64,000 nt of DNA from Escherichia coli (lineage in GTDB: Bacteria > Pseudomonadota > Gammaproteobacteria > Enterobacterales > Enterobacteriaceae), in NCBI RefSeq assembly GCF_003019035.1, contig NZ_CP027447.1, one strand, 5' to 3'. Of the stretch, positions 2 through 6,605 are shown one piece after another (the first letter of the stretch is position 1; each line of letters opens with the position of its first letter). Position numbers and translations under genes: made by a program. The notes under the pieces are model-generated. The model was not told where the DNA came from, made no database searches, and saw only the letters and a program-made list of their open reading frames with translations.

Positions 2-250
2 CTGTACTTTTACCCCGGCCCGGAATCCGAACCTATTCTGGCCGCGGCTGAATCGTCGTTCAGGAAGTGGCTGGCTGAGCAGGGGCTTATCGGTCAGGAC
101 GTGGCGTTGTCCGCCATTGCTGCCGCACTGCATGTGCACGGTGTGCAACGCGTGGAGATAATCGAACCCACACAGAATATGGCCATCAGCGACATACAGG
201 CGGCGCGCTGTGAGTCATTCACCATCAGCGAAGGTGGGCGCAATGAGTAA
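2..250 (+). CDS. P2-like baseplate assembly protein J, C-terminal fragment (truncated by window start)
   Basis: Open frame from window edge to TAA at 248-250, overlapping the start of the downstream gpI-like gene; position immediately upstream of I-H as in P2 V-W-J-I-H order. Confidence 0.5.
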   Translation: MYFYPGPESEPILAAAESSFRKWLAEQGLIGQDVALSAIAAALHVHGVQRVEIIEPTQNMAISDIQAARCESFTISEGGRNE

Positions 251-851
251 TTCGTTGTTACCACCATCAGCCAGCAATTTCATGCGTTGTGCCGAAGCCG
301 TCGGAACACGCATTACAGACATTCCGGTAGACCTCAACACGCTGTGGTCGCCGGACACCTGCCCGGTGCATCTGCTGCCTTATCTCGCCTGGGCGTTTTC
401 CGTTGACCGCTGGGATCGCAACTGGCCGGAAGAGACAAAGCGACAGGTGATTCGTGATGCATGGCTGATACACCGACACAAAGGGACCATCAGCGCACTG
501 CGAAGAGCCGTGGAGCCTCTCGGCTACCTGATTGAAGTAAAGGAGTGGTGGCAACTCAACGAGGAGCCGGGAACATTTCGCATTGTTGTCGGAGTACTTG
601 ATCAGGGCATCACCGATGAAATGTATCAGGAACTTGAGCGCCTTATTGCGGATGCAAAACCAGTAAGTCGCCATCTGACAGGGCTGGCGATCAGCCTGAG
701 TGTGAACGGAAAGATTTTCGTTGGTACGGGATGCTATCACGGCGATGCCCTGACGGTTTATCCCTACACCCCGGAGTCCATTATTGTCGAAGGGGATTAT
801 TTCCCTGCCCCGGCCATTCATTTAATTGATAATCTGAGAGTAAACGCATGA
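243..851 (+). CDS. P2-like baseplate/tail protein I
   Basis: ORF track 210..851 (GTG); more likely ATG at 243 (MSNSLLPP...). Lies between J and tail fibre H; stop overlaps H start (ATGA). Confidence 0.6.
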   Translation: MSNSLLPPSASNFMRCAEAVGTRITDIPVDLNTLWSPDTCPVHLLPYLAWAFSVDRWDRNWPEETKRQVIRDAWLIHRHKGTISALRRAVEPLGYLIEVKEWWQLNEEPGTFRIVVGVLDQGITDEMYQELERLIADAKPVSRHLTGLAISLSVNGKIFVGTGCYHGDALTVYPYTPESIIVEGDYFPAPAIHLIDNLRVNA

Positions 852-2353
852 CAGTGAAATACTACGCCATTCTGACTAATCAGGGCGCGGCACGACTGGC
901 TAACGCGACGATGCTCGGCAGTAAGCTGAATCTGACGCAAATGGCCGTTGGTGATGCAAATGGTGTGTTACCAACACCAGACCCTGCACAAACAAAACTG
1001 ATTAACCAGAAACGCATTGCACCGCTGAATCTTCTGAGTGTTGACCCTAACAATCAGAGCCAGATTATTGCGGAACAAATCATCCCTGAAAACGAGGGAG
1101 GATTCTGGATCCGTGAGATTGGTCTTTATGATGATGAAGGCGTACTTATTGCGGTGGCAAACTGCCCGGAAACGTACAAACCGCAGTTGCAGGAAGGCAG
1201 TGGACGCACCCAGACTATCCGCATGATTCTGGTTGTCACGAACACCGAAGCCATCACGCTGAAAATCGACCCGTCAGTGGTTCTGGCAACCCGCAAATAT
1301 GTGGATGATAAAATCTCAGAGCACGAACAGTCACGACGTCACCCGGACGCCTCGCTGACCGTAAAAGGTTTTACTCAGTTAAGCAGTGCAATTAACAGTG
1401 AATCAGAAACACTGGCCGCAACACCGAAAGCGGTTAAGGCTGCATATGACCTGGCTAACAGGAAATATACCGCCCAGAACGCCACCACTACACAAAAAGG
1501 GATTGTTCAGCTCAGTAGCGCCACGAACAGCACGTCTGAAACGCTGGCAGCGACACCAAAAGCTGTTAAGGCGGTAATGGATGAAACGAACAAGAAAGCA
1601 CCATTAAACAGCCCGGCACTGACCGGAACGCCAACAACACCAACAGCGCCACAGGGGACTAATAATACCCAGATCGCAAGCACGGCTTTCGTTATGGCTG
1701 CGATTGCCGCACTTGTAGATTCGTCCCCTGATGCACTGAACACGCTGAACGAACTGGCTGCGGCGCTGGGCAATGACCCGAACTTTGCGACTACCATGAC
1801 TAACGCGCTTGCGGGTAAGCAATCGAAGGATGCCACCCTGACGGCGCTGGCGGAGCTTGCTACATCAGCAGATAAACTCCCATATTTTACAGGGGCAGAT
1901 CGTGCCGCGTTAACCGCGTTGACAAGTGTTGGACGTGCCATTCTTGGTAAAACCAGCACTCAGGGAGTTCTTGATTACCTTGGTTTGGGGGAAGGCTCTG
2001 CGCTGCCCGTTGGTGTACCTGTTCCATGGCCCTCAGCCACACCGCCAACGGGGTGGCTAAAATGTAACGGAGCAGCATTTTCTTCTGAAAAATACCCCAA
2101 ACTGGCAAAGGCTTACCCAACGTTAAAATTACCGGATTTACGGGGTGAGTTTATCCGTGGCTGGGATGATGGGCGCGGGATTGATGCGGGACGTACCCTG
2201 CTTTCTGGGCAGGATGGTACAAGTTTTTCTCATTACGGAGGTAATTTCGACATTGGGTCTGGTCATTCAATCAATAACTATGACCAAATTGTTTCTAACC
2301 AACCAGGCTTTTCCCGTTTTTCATTTGCGGGCCTTCACGAGGTGATGGGTTAA
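848..2353 (+). CDS. Phage tail fibre protein (P2 gpH-like), constant N-terminal part fused to currently attached variable C-terminal cassette A
   Basis: 501-aa ORF with Ala/Thr-rich repeats typical of tail fibres; C-terminal region begins with the block LGLGEGSALPVGVPVPWPSATPPTGWLKCNGAAFSSEKYPKLAKAYPTLKLPDLRGEFIRGWDDGRG that recurs in five other cassettes. Confidence 0.8.
   Translation: MTVKYYAILTNQGAARLANATMLGSKLNLTQMAVGDANGVLPTPDPAQTKLINQKRIAPLNLLSVDPNNQSQIIAEQIIPENEGGFWIREIGLYDDEGVLIAVANCPETYKPQLQEGSGRTQTIRMILVVTNTEAITLKIDPSVVLATRKYVDDKISEHEQSRRHPDASLTVKGFTQLSSAINSESETLAATPKAVKAAYDLANRKYTAQNATTTQKGIVQLSSATNSTSETLAATPKAVKAVMDETNKKAPLNSPALTGTPTTPTAPQGTNNTQIASTAFVMAAIAALVDSSPDALNTLNELAAALGNDPNFATTMTNALAGKQSKDATLTALAELATSADKLPYFTGADRAALTALTSVGRAILGKTSTQGVLDYLGLGEGSALPVGVPVPWPSATPPTGWLKCNGAAFSSEKYPKLAKAYPTLKLPDLRGEFIRGWDDGRGIDAGRTLLSGQDGTSFSHYGGNFDIGSGHSINNYDQIVSNQPGFSRFSFAGLHEVMG
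1376..1573 (+). repeat. In-frame tandem 44-codon repeat inside the tail fibre gene (QLSSA-NS-SETLAATPKAVKA motif twice)
   Basis: Motif at 1376.. and again at 1508.. (132 nt apart) in the H reading frame. Confidence 0.6.
1968..1993. other. Invertase crossover site 1 (hix/gix/cix-like), + orientation, inside H at constant/variable junction
   Basis: Sequence ...ACC TT GGTTTGGGGGAAGG... (core TT ~1980-1981) repeated at five other places; resembles the AAACC-NN-GGTTT architecture of Hin/Gin/Cin/Pin sites. Confidence 0.6.
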
Positions 2354-2404: not shown

Positions 2405-2430
2405 AGCATAAAAACGTTGGTTTGGGGAAG
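2405..2430. other. Invertase crossover site 2, + orientation (variant with GGGG instead of GGGGG)
   Basis: CATAAAAACG TT GGTTTGGGGAAGG at 2408-2430, immediately after the conserved cassette end RPRNIAFNYIVRAA-stop. Confidence 0.55.
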
Positions 2431-2897
2431 GCTCTGCGCTGCCCGTTGGTGTACCTGTTCCATGGCCCTTAGAAACACCGCCAACGGGGTGGCTAAAATG
2501 TAACGGAGCAGCATTTTCTTCTGAAAAGTACCCCAAGCTGGCAAAAGCCTACCCCACCAATAAATTACCGGATTTACGGGGTGAATTTATTCGTGGCTGG
2601 GATGATGGGCGAGGAATTGATGCAGCACGCGCTTTATTGAGCATTCAAACCGGGATGTTGGAAAAACACCGCCATATTGTTGTAGCTAACGATGGATATG
2701 ACACAAAGGATGAATGGGAGTTGGCCACGATTTTCAAAAAAACATATACACAAGGCAGGGGGCTTGATGCCACAAATACAGGAGGGAGTTTGATTCCATC
2801 ACCAACGCTTCATTCACGAGGAAGTATTGGTAACACAGGTGGTAGTGAAACCCGCCCCCGCAATATTGCATTTAACTATATCGTGAGGGCGGCTTAG
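2421..2897 (+). other. Promoterless tail-fibre C-terminal cassette B (silent, + orientation)
   Basis: Frame beginning FGEGSALPVGVPVPWPLETPPTGWLKCNGAAFSSEKYPKLAKAYPTNKLPDLRGEFIRGWDDGRG... ending ...ETRPRNIAFNYIVRAA-stop at 2897; no start codon at its 5' end (ORF track only picks internal Met at 2637). Confidence 0.6.
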
Positions 2898-2903
2898 TTA
2901 TAT

Positions 2904-3515
2904 TCAACTGGCTGCTGCCAGTGGTATTTCCGGCCAGTTGATATCTGATGCCATGTTTATATCCATTGCGTTCAGTGCGTCTATATAATCCAGCACGGCG
3001 TTAAGCCGGGTGGTTTCTGCCTGCGTCAACTTCCGCCCGGCCCGCAACTTCAACTGAATCAGACTAATGGAAGCCATTGCAGTATCAATCAGCGACTGGC
3101 GCTGTGTTTCTGCCGCTTCTACTGCGGCGCTATGCTGTGCCTCGGTATCCGTCACCCATTTTTCACCATCCCATTTATCGTATGGTGTTAACGGGGCGAT
3201 AGTGGTTGTATTTTTCGGGTAGTCACCCAGCGTCGTGATTTCTTCGGTGTTTCCCGTATCAGTGCTATAGACGGTTTCACCACGATGATCTGGCGTATAC
3301 TCCCATGAATTTAAATTCTCCGAACGGCGGATAGCATAGCCCGCTTTATGTGCGCCCGGGGCATCTAAACAGGAATTTGCCGGAATACCGACACCCGCAG
3401 CAAGATATTCAGTTGATTCGGAAATATATTCCCGTGTCTCACCATCATAGTTATAAACGACGATGTTTCCTGCCTGTACGGCAATAAGGTCATCATTTAA
3501 TATCGCGTTATTCAT
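2904..3515 (-). CDS. Tail fibre assembly protein (Tfa / P2 gpG-like chaperone)
   Basis: 203-aa ORF immediately downstream (minus strand) of cassette C with ATGA overlap; position and size as for tfa genes following tail fibre variable segments. Confidence 0.6.
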   Translation of the reverse strand: MNNAILNDDLIAVQAGNIVVYNYDGETREYISESTEYLAAGVGIPANSCLDAPGAHKAGYAIRRSENLNSWEYTPDHRGETVYSTDTGNTEEITTLGDYPKNTTTIAPLTPYDKWDGEKWVTDTEAQHSAAVEAAETQRQSLIDTAMASISLIQLKLRAGRKLTQAETTRLNAVLDYIDALNAMDINMASDINWPEIPLAAAS

Positions 3516-3973
3516 TATGCGGTTCTCACAATATAATTGAAGGCAATATTGCGTGGGCGGGTTTCATTCCCCTCTGAGGATTCCGTTCTGTATTGACTGG
3601 TAAATCTACCGTTAATTGCACCTTGCCGGACGGCGTTATCTGTCGACAACAGACTATCCCCTCCTTTGTCATTTGGCACCAGTACCGTGTTATCCCACGC
3701 ATCCCATGACCGAATATTATGATAATGACTTCCTGTTAACCACCCCTGCATGCTTAAGATGCCCCTTCCGGCATCCACCCCGCGCCCATCATCCCAGCCA
3801 CGAATAAATTCACCCCGTAAATCCGGTAATTTTAACGTTGGGTAAGCCTTTGCCAGTTTTGGATACTTTTCAGAAGAAAATGCTGCTCCGTTACATTTTA
3901 GCCACCCAGTTGGCGGCGTGGCTGAGGGCCATGGAACGGGCACACCAACGGGCAGCGCAGAGCCTTCCCCCAA
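3515..3973 (-). other. Tail-fibre C-terminal cassette C (silent, inverted), followed by tfa
   Basis: Begins with conserved GEGSALPVGVPVPWPSATPPTGWLKCNGAAF... block, ends ...ETRPRNIAFNYIVRTA; starts at crossover site, no ATG. Confidence 0.6.
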
Positions 3974-3990
3974 ACCAACGTTTTCATGCT
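3965..3990. other. Invertase crossover site 3, inverted orientation
   Basis: CCTTCCCCCAAACC AA CGTTTTCATG on + strand (reverse complement of site consensus). Confidence 0.55.
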
Positions 3991-4451
3991 GCCCTTACGA
4001 TGTAATTAAACGCAATGTTATGGGGGCGTGTTTCAGATGCTGTGCGAACTGAGCGAGAGGCGTCGAATGTCCATACAGAAGCACCATATCCTTCAATGAT
4101 CTCAGTTGGTTGTAAGCCTACTGATAATATAGAGTCAGTTTGACTAAATGGTCCTGAATTAAACGCATCTTTAAAAAGCTGAGTACGCCCAAAAGTGCCA
4201 ACTATATTCTGAATAGCGTCAGACTGTGCAGACAGTAGGTTGCGCCCATTATCAACGCCCCGTCCGTCATCCCAGCCGCGAATAAATTCGCCCCGTAAAT
4301 CCGGTAATTTATTGGTGGAGTAGGCCTTTGCCAGATTGGGGTACATTTCAGAAGAAAATGCTGCGCCGTTACATTTCAGCCACCCCGTTGGCGGCGTGGC
4401 TGAGGGCCATGGAACGGGCACACCAACGGGCAGCGCAGAGCCTTCCCCCAA
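3984..4451 (-). other. Tail-fibre C-terminal cassette D (silent, inverted)
   Basis: Same conserved N-terminal block and C-terminal ...ETRPHNIAFNYIVRAA; distinct variable middle. Confidence 0.6.
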
Positions 4452-4468
4452 ACCAACGTTTTTATGCC
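4443..4468. other. Invertase crossover site 4, inverted orientation
   Basis: CCTTCCCCCAAACC AA CGTTTTTATG on + strand. Confidence 0.55.
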
Positions 4469-4890
4469 GCCCTTACGATGTAATTAAATGCGATATTTCG
4501 CGGCCTGACAGCAACAAAATTTATACCATCACCTACAGAGTTACTGGTGAAATTAAATCGTGAAAATCCTGGCTGATTTCCGACGATGCCATCATGAAAA
4601 TTAATTGCGTGCCCCGCACCATCACCTATATTTCCGGCACGCTGAGAAAAATTTGTAGCCTCTTGGCTGCTTAATAATGCTCGCCCATTGTCCACACCTC
4701 GTCCATCATCCCAACCTCGAATAAATTCGCCCCGTAGATCCGGCAATTTATTGGTGGGGTAAACCTTTGCCAGATTTGGGTACTTTTCAGAAGAAAATGC
4801 TGCTCCGTTACATTTCAGCCACCCCGTTGGCGGTGTGGCTGAGGGCCATGGAACAGGTACACCAACGGGCAGCGCAGAGCCTTCCCCCAA
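4462..4890 (-). other. Tail-fibre C-terminal cassette E (silent, inverted)
   Basis: Conserved N block; variable part ...GHAINFHDGIVGNQPGFSRFNF... is paralogous to attached cassette A; ends ...RPRNIAFNYIVRAA. Confidence 0.6.
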
Positions 4891-4907
4891 ACCAACGTTT
4901 TCATGCG
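4882..4907. other. Invertase crossover site 5, inverted orientation
   Basis: CTTCCCCCAAACC AA CGTTTTCATG on + strand. Confidence 0.55.
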
Positions 4908-5410
4908 GCTCTTACGATGTAATTAAACGCAATGTTACGAGGACGGTTTTCGTTTGCAGTTGGAACAATTCTTGAAGCATCAAGGCCAATCACTTTTGGG
5001 TAAACAGCGCCATCTGTTCTTTCTGTCACCATACTTCTGACTAAGGAGAAATAACTATTGTTCGTTGAGGGGCTCAAAGGCACTACTGCCCCCTTAAACG
5101 AACCTACTGATTCCCATATTGAATAATTTTCGGTGTTTACAGTCTTGAACTCACCATAGATATTACGTATGGCATCGCCCTGAGCGGATAATATTGCCCT
5201 CCCCGTATCCATACCACGTCCGTCATCCCAGCCACGAATAAATTCACCCCGTAAATCCGGTAATTTTAACGTTGGGTAAGCCTTTGCCAGTTTTGGATAC
5301 TTTTCAGAAGAAAATGCTGCTCCGTTACATTTTAGCCACCCAGTTGGCGGCGTGGCTGAGGGCCACGGAACGGGCACACCAACGGGCAGTGCAGAGCCTT
5401 CCCCCAAACC
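4901..5410 (-). other. Tail-fibre C-terminal cassette F (silent, inverted)
   Basis: Conserved N block and ...NRPRNIAFNYIVRAA end; ORF track extends it to 5464 by 17 fortuitous codons outside the crossover site. Confidence 0.55.
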
Positions 5411-5424
5411 AACGTTTTCGTTTT
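5399..5424. other. Invertase crossover site 6, inverted orientation (right boundary of invertible region)
   Basis: CCTTCCCCCAAACC AA CGTTTTCG on + strand, ~55 bp upstream of the invertase start. Confidence 0.55.
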
Positions 5425-5478
5425 TATCCCTACCTATACCAACTATGTATTTTTCACGAAACAAAGAGGATGTTTTTT

Positions 5479-6078
5479 ATGCAAATTGGCTATATTCGTG
5501 TGTCAACAAATGACCAGAACACGGATTTACAACGCAATGCACTGAACTGCGCAGGATGTGAACTGATTTTTGAAGATAAAATCAGCGGAACGAAATCAGC
5601 CAGACCGGGATTGAAAAAACTGCTCAGAACGCTATCAGAAGGAGATACGCTGGTTGTCTGGAAGCTGGACAGACTGGGCAGAAGTATGAAACACCTGATT
5701 ACGCTTATTGAGGAATTGCGGGAAAAAGGTGTTAATTTCCGTAGTCTGACGGACAGCATTGACACATCAACACCCATGGGGCGTTTCTTTTTTCACGTCA
5801 TGGGGGCTTTAGCCGAAATGGAACGTGAATTAATTGTAGAGCGTACACTGGCCGGACTGGCAGCAGCACGCGCACAAGGACGCATTGGCGGACGTCGCCC
5901 GAAGTTGACAAAAGAACAACACGAGCAAATAGCGAGGCTGATTAAAAACGGTCATGACAGGAAACAACTGGCGATCATTTACGACATCGGCATATCGACG
6001 ATTTATCGTTATCACCCTGTAGGCGATATACAGGCTGAAGAAACAACCAGGCAGACTCAGGAAAATGAAAACCGCTAA
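5479..6078 (+). CDS. Serine DNA invertase (Hin/Gin/Cin/Pin family site-specific recombinase)
   Basis: MQIGYIRVSTNDQNTDLQRNAL... with catalytic-serine resolvase/invertase N-terminal domain and C-terminal HTH (GISTIYRY); SD AAGAGGA before ATG 5479. ORF-track N-terminal extension from 5272 is the reverse complement of cassette F. Confidence 0.9.
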   Translation: MQIGYIRVSTNDQNTDLQRNALNCAGCELIFEDKISGTKSARPGLKKLLRTLSEGDTLVVWKLDRLGRSMKHLITLIEELREKGVNFRSLTDSIDTSTPMGRFFFHVMGALAEMERELIVERTLAGLAAARAQGRIGGRRPKLTKEQHEQIARLIKNGHDRKQLAIIYDIGISTIYRYHPVGDIQAEETTRQTQENENR

Positions 6079-6104
6079 TCTGACCATTAGCGGTTTTGCG
6101 TTAA

Positions 6105-6599
6105 TCAAAACAGCCCTTTAACGGAGCTGGCCGCGCTGTTAAGGGATGATGTGACCTTATCTTTGAAGCCGGACAGCATATCACTGAACGATGAGGATTG
6201 CAGGCGCTCCCGCAAATCCTCATCACAGCGTTCAAGAGTCAGTGAAAATTCTATCTTTTTCGCCTTACCGTAGCGATCAAACTCGGAGCGGGTCGTATTC
6301 GTTTCAGTCAGTACATACATGCCGTAAATCTGCCCGACACCATCAATCAGAGGCCAGGGGCGTCCTGTATATGCCTGCGTGGTCAGCAGCGAAAGCGACA
6401 CTTCGCCACCTGTAATTTCAGGATAAAGCACGCCAGAAAGCACGATGCGATCATCACCTGCACCGATATACTGCCAGCTTGCTGAGCGGTTTACGCGCTC
6501 ATTTTTCACATGCCGCCAGCTTTTGTTTTGCTGTAACTGCTGATGCGGCAGTGTGCGCAGCTCAAAAACAAACATGCCGTAGATCATCATCATGACCAT
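6105..6599 (-). CDS. P2-like tail protein U
   Basis: ~160-aa ORF directly downstream of the tape-measure gene on the minus strand; N-terminal region resembles P2 gpU. Confidence 0.6.
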   Translation of the reverse strand: MVMMMIYGMFVFELRTLPHQQLQQNKSWRHVKNERVNRSASWQYIGAGDDRIVLSGVLYPEITGGEVSLSLLTTQAYTGRPWPLIDGVGQIYGMYVLTETNTTRSEFDRYGKAKKIEFSLTLERCDEDLRERLQSSSFSDMLSGFKDKVTSSLNSAASSVKGLF

Positions 6600-6605
6600 G
6601 ACTCC

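Follow-up and report, generated by a model that had tools for sequence, protein, structure and literature searches.

The 64,000-nucleotide stretch of Escherichia coli DNA analyzed here, referred to as the window, carries in its left 13 kb the tail module of a P2-like prophage. Judged from its sequence, the tail-fibre locus of that module is a Min-type (p15B-like) multiple-inversion region, in which six alternative fibre tips are accompanied by a single gene, tfa, for a tail-fibre assembly chaperone. The best explanation for this arrangement, and one we consider reasonably probable, is that the locus is a shuffling array in which one Tfa serves all six tips, a single chaperone being enough because the six cassettes share a single collar scaffold. 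Favoring this explanation are the common scaffold itself, the natural pairing of Tfa with several classes of tip insert, and the finding that arrays with two tfa genes pair tips of different folds.

Under this explanation, a serine invertase would recombine six crossover sites and so could join any of six C-terminal receptor-binding cassettes to Hc, the constant part of the tail-fibre gene H. Each cassette is a version of one module of the T4 gp37 or lambda Stf collar type, and Tfa would act on the invariant collar and C-terminus, starting trimer assembly whichever cassette is in use. Lying in the pivot segment of the array, tfa would be co-transcribed downstream of H in half of the isomers.

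Architecture of the inversion region

Gene gpI (210-851, plus strand) lies upstream of gpH, whose present reading frame (848-2353, plus strand) consists of Hc and cassette A. Hc (848..1981, plus strand) matches the Pfam families Phage_tail_fib and Phage_fiber_2 and terminates with ...GVLDYL at the first crossover site. Cassette A, now fused to Hc (1982..2353, plus strand), is followed by an out-of-frame remnant, RPRNIAFNYIVRAA, that extends to 2409. Cassette B (2419..2897, plus strand), which has an HRH motif, is convergent on tfa (2904..3515, minus strand), the lone chaperone gene of 203 codons. The other four cassettes are all on the minus strand: C, with an HYH motif (3515..3976); D, of the DAIQNI class (3984..4454); E, related to A (4462..4893); and F, of the DAIRNI class (4901..5410). 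A fixed flank of 54 nt (5425..5478) separates the last crossover site from the ATG of the invertase and holds a conserved dyad, TGTATTTTTCACGAAACA, at 5446-5463. The reading frame listed for F continues to a TTG at 5464 within this flank. A leader reading frame that would enter the last cassette from the right-hand flank is probably spurious; it is open in P2-like loci and closed by a TAA in P1-like ones.

The serine DNA invertase (5479..6078, plus strand) is of the Hin/Gin/Cin/Min (Din) family and, as expected of such an enzyme, matches Pfam Resolvase (E = 3.4e-51) and HTH_7 (E = 2.4e-12). A sequence resembling a bidirectional terminator hairpin (6068..6097) is found where the invertase and gpU stop. 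Beyond the invertase, genes gpU, T, E', E, FII and FI are on the minus strand, convergent with it, and gpD is on the plus strand. The position of the FI-U block on the opposite strand was considered as a possible rearrangement and rejected, as this is the normal layout in the prophage subgroup. The chromosomal part of the window is 100% identical to E. coli SCU-301, and the prophage is absent from that SCU-301 record.

Each of the six cassettes opens at a crossover site placed right after the stop codon of the previous cassette. Pfam Collar was found with E = 1e-15 in C, D, E and F and in the H protein, which carries cassette A. A Pfam scan of the 86-aa B fragment returned no match, and B was assigned to the family from its tblastn match to the conserved segment of the collar and from the alignment of the cassettes. 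The six sites have a TT core preceded by AC(G/C) and followed by GGTTTGGGGGAAGG. Two are on the plus strand, x1 (1968..1993; GATTACC-TT-GGTTTGGGGGAAGG, core at 1980-1981) and x2 (2405..2430; core at 2417-2418), the latter with a run of four G residues instead of five. The remaining four, recognized by the site sequence, are on the minus strand: x3 (3965..3990; core at 3978-3977), x4 (4443..4468), x5 (4882..4907) and x6 (5399..5424), which forms the right-hand boundary of the invertible region. The conserved 2-bp core, the presence of inverted orientations and the re-assortment of left and right site halves among relatives are all as in sites of Din-family enzymes, while the presence of more than two sites, with several 3' cassettes available for joining to a single constant 5' fibre reading frame, places the locus with the Min type.

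The consequences of shuffling were followed in an in-silico model that allowed recombination between any pair of oppositely oriented sites. The number of isomers reachable in the model is 240, or 5! x 2. This matches the number reportedly given by Sandmeier in 1991 for the six sites of the p15B Min region. The array has one double-ended segment, the pivot, in the order B> <tfa <C; cassettes to its left face in the direction of H and all those to its right face back. In the modelled isomers, tfa is downstream of H and co-oriented with it in 120 of the 240. When sorted by the cassette joined to H, tfa is in the sense orientation in all 24 isomers with C, in 24 of 48 for each of A, D, E and F, and in none of the 24 with B, since B is always convergent on tfa within the pivot segment. 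The present state is Hc-A with tfa antisense, and one inversion between x2 and x3 would give Hc-A-x-C-tfa. An earlier note on this DNA had called for such modelling, having proposed that tfa might lie where certain inversions bring it behind whichever cassette is expressed. That proposal survives for C and, in half of their states, for A, D, E and F; it does not for B.

Residues 78-198 of Tfa match Caudo_TAP (PF02413; E = 1.1e-33, 116.6 bits against a cutoff of 22.1), so that the protein has an N-terminal region of 77 aa ahead of the Caudo_TAP domain, and it is 78% identical to HK97 Tfa. No second homologue was found by tblastn over the 64 kb window (next best E = 1.4), or by hmmsearch with --max over all six-frame open reading frames of the window (next best E = 3.7) using a custom profile of 89 Tfa and Tfa' sequences with filters off. 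The closer profile search for additional tfa-like genes, which the earlier note had itself named, thus leaves its count of one tfa for six cassettes standing, and its observation that only C is followed by tfa is also borne out. It had described the junction as an ATGA overlap, which has to be corrected: the stop codon of C (3517-3515) and the ATG of tfa (3515-3513) share one base, in TAATG.

The same one-base overlap of tip and tfa occurs in HK97 and in the related locus L042, and in placing tfa immediately downstream of a fibre-tip coding sequence the C-tfa junction follows the pattern of the family. Among the six cassettes, tfa is directly downstream of C only, and its own Shine-Dalgarno sequence is weak. 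The TAATG overlap suggests that translation of tfa is coupled to C alone. Because the gene overlaps only the C stop codon and has a weak Shine-Dalgarno sequence, its translation may be poor in sense isomers other than Hc-C-tfa.

Cassettes, scaffold and chaperone among relatives

The six cassettes appear as variants of one module. In an alignment covering 15 cassette types, two of whose 15 rows are copies of A, the first 75 residues include 57 that are invariant, the final 13, RPRNIAFNYIVRA, are near-invariant, and the 60-100 residues in the middle are hypervariable and cannot be aligned. When cassette C was compared by phmmer with the tip of T4 gp37 (2XGF), query residues 5-69 and 131-152 aligned, which are the conserved segments; C also aligns to T4 gp12 and to the short tail fibre 9cuy. 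The cassettes thus have the Collar segment and the C-terminal ..NIAFNYIVR.. strand of a collar tip around a variable insert. The window's copy of A lacks the C-terminal strand through its frameshifts. Collar and distal tip were assigned with the gp37 domain boundaries of the 2XGF paper, which we take to apply here. By homology, the two constant segments would together form the collar and the insert the distal receptor-binding tip. In published work, this receptor-binding family is described as having a conserved scaffold that surrounds a specific insert of 30-70 aa (PMC9659904). In the folding of gp37, T4 gp38 can be replaced by lambda Tfa (PMC9659904).

Given this scaffold, we infer that Tfa binds the constant collar and C-terminus. 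In Mu, Tfa is reported to bind the C-terminal region of the fibre, where assembly would start (North 2019, as cited in PMC9608196); in the window's array, this end is common to the cassettes. Against binding to the collar, it is the variable N-terminal domain of Tfa by which the fibre is bound in Mu.

The window itself contains damaged cassettes, and it might be supposed that most of the array is decaying or non-functional, with infective phage coming from Hc-C-tfa only. Relative to intact A cassettes, the window's A has 1-nt deletions between 2328 and 2329 and between 2346 and 2347, because of which the H reading frame stops early, at 2353, and ends in ..SFAGLHEVMG. The G run of x2 (2424-2427) is G4 instead of G5, so B, though open internally, is in the -1 frame relative to Hc. 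The antisense orientation of tfa to H in half of the isomers would also fit a decaying array. However, an intact NYIVR ending is present in 110 of 111 typed cassette copies across relatives, the exception being the window's A, of which nine intact 141-aa copies are present in other loci. Some untyped fragments in locus L019 are also disrupted. The shortened G run occurs at only 4 of the 122 sites of all loci, two of those four being in a poor-quality assembly. What is broken in the window is therefore to be put down to local mutation or faulty polishing and not to the system itself. The three single-base deletions, which fall within about 100 nt, may be real decay or equally errors made in polishing a region whose arrangement is heterogeneous in any culture.

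Selection points in the same direction. In the variable parts of every cassette type with enough divergence to measure, pN/pS is 0.11-0.26, and for tfa it is 0.26. For B the value is 0.11 over all copies and 0.19 over the convergent copies only; the latter have pS of 0.108 and pN of 0.020, their 16 distinct DNA sequences encoding 6 proteins. From these ratios, all cassette types and tfa are under purifying selection, and the cassettes are not junk. The view that most cassettes are non-functional, which the earlier note had allowed for, is thus not supported, the intact endings and the pN/pS values both speaking against it, and we consider it very improbable.

To avoid bias, loci of relatives were gathered two ways, by Tfa and by invertase. 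They sort into two architectures, a Min type and a Mu/P1 type. P2-like prophages and P1-like phage-plasmids carry the Min type, and a third kind of myophage (L112-L114) has it in a minimal two-cassette form. In Min-type loci the collar-type cassettes number from 2 to at least 9 and belong to at least 15 types; there is exactly one tfa per locus, and the order is always cassette> tfa> <cassette. In the sample drawn by invertase, every complete array with at least two collar cassettes flanking tfa has one tfa; tfa is missing from one array only, that of L091, which is what remains of a prophage after deletion. Genomes of plaque-propagated phages, considered as a guide to which isomers are infective, proved uninformative, since the Min-type records among them are all P1-like assemblies of poor quality.

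In loci of the Mu/P1 type, a collar tip with a 200-aa Tfa faces a non-collar tip (Pfam Gp53-like_C) with its own Tfa' of 146 aa, which lacks the N-terminal region. The number of chaperones therefore appears to follow the number of tip folds and not the number of tips. The expectation of the earlier note that each alternative tip has its own cognate chaperone is correct for Mu and P1; as a comparison for the window it fails, since the Min type has one tfa per complete array.

The relatives also record natural shuffling. The set B, C, D and F occurs in four arrangements (L008, L014, L009 and L015), the end of Hc is joined to 8 cassette types, and 10 loci have tfa in the sense orientation against 14 with it antisense. 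In the prophage of strain E2348/69 (L001), four isomers coexist and the inversions were confirmed by PCR (PMC4272514). A C-type cassette is upstream of tfa in nearly all Min-type loci, and the types near tfa nevertheless vary: an O type is upstream in L018 and a K-like type in L112, where an O-like type is convergent, while the B and H types are convergent on tfa in some elements and single-ended in others.

These positions bear on whether tfa might be the private chaperone of its ancestral partner C, the other tips folding without Tfa, as T4 gp12 does with a general chaperone. The TAATG overlap with C and the near-constant place of the C type upstream of tfa are what such a history would leave, and B is conserved though it is never co-oriented with tfa. 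Cassettes D and F match the short tail fibre 9cuy along their full length, and to our knowledge gp38 is not needed for the short fibres of T4. However, cassette types are not bound to position, as the O type of L018, the K type of L112 and the varying places of B and H show. HK97 joins a tip with an insert of the DAIRNI class, that of D and F, directly to a downstream Tfa 78% identical to that of the window. In addition, the B, G, H, L and N types share the HxH needle motif with C, and no differing need for a chaperone is obvious among them. A private chaperone for C is for these reasons unlikely in our estimation.

More generally, Tfa proteins 61-80% identical to that of the window pair natively with tips bearing different inserts: the DAIRNI class in HK97, a GSHVH type in L042, a K-like type in L112 (whose Tfa is the 61% identical one) and the O type in L018. 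Because cassettes shift relative to tfa and close Tfa proteins pair with several insert classes, chaperone independence of the cassettes is disfavoured by the sequences. The change of cassette types in position relative to tfa between elements also argues that all cassettes bear the same relation to Tfa and that C is not special. If one Tfa folds every collar-type tip, new inserts could be used in engineering the host range of phages or tailocins without co-engineering a chaperone, and the growth of arrays by simple addition of cassettes would be explained.

Supply of Tfa in antisense isomers

Position of tfa together with a shared chaperone cannot be the whole story, because neither the B cassette nor, in P1-like elements, the H type can share the orientation of tfa, and yet B is conserved. 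Candidate sources of tfa expression in the antisense isomers were therefore sought in the DNA around the gene. No conserved sigma-70-like promoter was found upstream of tfa inside C in the 23 loci scanned; the best candidate, rejected, was a 9/12 match present in 5 of the 23 loci and dependent on coding variants. The dyad of P2-type late promoters, TGT-N12-ACA, was not found inside the array. Read-through into tfa from the convergent FI-U tail operon is unlikely, because the terminator-like hairpin, conserved and bidirectional, lies between gpU and the invertase; it occurs at 41 places among the fetched loci, including P2-like relatives that reach that far.

A single TGT-N12-ACA dyad is present in the 54-nt fixed flank, where its arms are kept and its spacer varies in both P2-like and P1-like loci. 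This conservation raises the question of whether tfa is expressed both ways, with a leftward promoter at the invertase-proximal boundary or in the cassettes adding to the effect of the shared scaffold, and the pivot position letting one tfa serve every isomer. The geometry of the array suits such a promoter: in every isomer, an antisense tfa and all cassettes on the right side of the pivot have one orientation, and a promoter at the boundary would always reach tfa. The conservation of B, moreover, calls for some such supply of Tfa.

The dyad is, however, a poor candidate for the purpose. It was rejected as a P2 late promoter, being wrongly spaced and kept in P1-like elements as well. In P2 late promoters the spacing is typically roughly 55 nt, whereas this dyad is only about 30-38 nt from the best -10-like hexamer. 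P1-like elements use no Ogr-type late activator that we know of, and the dyad is absent from the flank of the L019 type. Chance alone would produce about three dyads of this kind on each strand of 13.5 kb. The flank doubles as the promoter region of the invertase, which is enough to explain its conservation, and no sigma-70-like promoter was found on the strand in question. Expression of tfa in both directions, together with service to every isomer from the pivot, accordingly seems to us improbable.

A further reading takes the orientation of the pivot as a second layer of variation, such that tips of the B and H types, and half of the A, D, E and F states, are built with tfa antisense. Tfa remains on the mature fibre in Mu and Ur-lambda. 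Fibres may work without Tfa, in which case capped and uncapped forms with different receptor behaviour would arise; alternatively, an undescribed promoter at the invertase boundary may feed tfa from the other side. We hold this second layer of variation to be a speculative and doubtful proposition. If it is true, a conserved cassette that is never co-transcribed with the only chaperone would indicate that the supply of Tfa, or the dependence of tips on it, follows a rule not yet recognised. With the single Tfa shared through the common scaffold still the preferred explanation, the antisense isomers, all B states included, may build their tips free of Tfa, with Tfa from a further promoter or with Tfa supplied in trans, a small problem of Tfa dependence and late-gene expression that lends itself to a clean test.

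Comparison with known systems

Several known systems resemble the window locus in part. The Mu G (Gin) and P1 C (Cin) segments likewise have an adjacent Din-family invertase, a swapped C-terminal part of the fibre and Caudo_TAP chaperones. Mu and P1 have one invertible segment with two tips, and behind each tip lies a separate chaperone gene, U or U' (PMC13172314). The window has six tips and one tfa, and so lacks the own chaperone per tip that marks the Mu G and P1 C class. In the two-tfa relatives examined, the two tips are of different folds, Collar and Gp53-like_C.

T4 gp37/gp38 and the Stf/Tfa pairs of lambda and HK97 share the tip module itself. The collar segments of gp37 (2XGF) can be aligned with the cassettes of the window, and the Stf of HK97 ends in the same module, followed by a Tfa with the 78% identity noted above. 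These phages differ in having a single fixed tip and no inversion. The tip of gp37 is a long iron-binding needle, while the window's cassettes have at most one HxH motif each. The R64 shufflon is similar in logic, multiple inversions deciding which of several C-terminal ends the adhesin PilV carries. It differs in its tyrosine recombinase (Rci), its asymmetric sfx sites and its place in a conjugative pilus; the window encodes a serine resolvase/invertase and no R64-type assignment follows.

The Min region of p15B, a multiple DNA inversion region reportedly described by Sandmeier, Iida and Arber in 1991/1992, and its P1-like kin (such as pJMK02, locus L003) have the same organization as the window: a serine invertase, several sites in both orientations, and a constant 5' fibre reading frame joined to alternative collar-type 3' cassettes. 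In the P1-like loci L003, L020, L023, L024 and L108, a single tfa is likewise found in the double-ended segment. The p15B-type kin are on P1-like plasmids, whereas the window's locus is in a P2-like prophage, with gpI-gpH upstream and gpU-gpFI convergent downstream. The cassette convergent on tfa is of the H type in those kin and of the B type in the window, and the window has no truncated second invertase gene beside the first.

The closest relative is the shufflon of enteropathogenic E. coli (EPEC) E2348/69, with a backbone about 95% identical to that of the window (Goldberg et al. 2014, PMC4272514). Both have the A, B and C cassettes, tfa, the invertase and the terminator-like hairpin. With three sites and three cassettes, E2348/69 has 4 isomers, while the six sites and six cassettes of the window, through the additional D, E and F, give 240. 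With the Min-type comparison and the scaffold shared by the cassettes, the puzzle of one chaperone for six tips largely dissolves, and the locus is an otherwise ordinary example of the system described for p15B around 1991 and for the EPEC prophage in 2014.

Frame defects in cassettes A and B

Compared with intact relatives, the window carries three single-base deletions within about 100 nt, at 2328-2347 and 2424-2427. Two of the three lie in the 3' end of fibre-tip cassette A (2328-2347), and H as currently expressed is therefore truncated and lacks RPRNIAFNYIVRAA. The third (2424-2427) shortens the G run of x2, the crossover site preceding cassette B (2405-2430), from G5 to G4, placing B out of frame with Hc, the constant part of the tail-fibre gene (848-1981, plus strand). 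These deletions are located in a region that is variable within a culture; they could reflect real decay, or they could be errors of assembly and polishing.

Sequence elements and genes flanking the invertible region

The fixed flank that separates the ATG of the invertase from the last crossover site contains a perfect TGT-N12-ACA dyad (5446-5463; TGTATTTTTCACGAAACA). P2-like and P1-like loci alike keep its TGT and ACA arms but differ in the spacer. The dyad may be a promoter or operator of the invertase, or it may be a chance occurrence. The invertase and gpU genes converge, and a bidirectional terminator-like hairpin (6068-6097; AAAACCGCTAAT-CTGACC-ATTAGCGGTTTT) separates them. Copies of this hairpin were found at 41 places in the fetched loci, differing mainly in the loop.

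The tail genes FI-FII-E-E'-T-U (6105-12957) are on the minus strand, convergent with the V..H operon, and gpD is on the plus strand, divergent from FI. Gene order in P2 differs from this layout, which is however normal in the subgroup to which this prophage belongs, along with that of the EPEC strain E2348/69 and others. Past gpD and ahead of the first chromosomal genes (13984-16000) the window encodes a DNA methylase (N6_N4_Mtase), and a further ORF there has a weak GemA-like match. No tRNA gene was found in the first 20 kb of the window.

Related arrays and known systems

Two relatives have irregular arrays. In locus L012 (1260-4784) the double-ended pivot segment, which holds the chaperone gene tfa, is present in two copies placed head to head; this may be an assembly error that joined two isomers. 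Locus L091 (6506-7986) retains four reversed cassettes and the invertase, while H and tfa are gone and the array adjoins the genes for terminase and portal; this locus has the look of a deleted prophage remnant.

A different myophage (L112, 4826-8573; also L113 and L114) has the system in minimal form. Its single invertible unit carries two collar-type tips, one K-like and one O-like, and since the only tfa sits between them, it is always antisense in one of the two states. In HK97, Stf (L163, 515-2088) has the same C-terminal module as the window's cassettes (GLGEGSALP...NIAFNYIVRAV), and the Tfa proteins of HK97 and the window share 78% identity. HK97 is without an invertase, even though its Stf contains LGLGEG, the amino-acid motif encoded by the window's crossover site.
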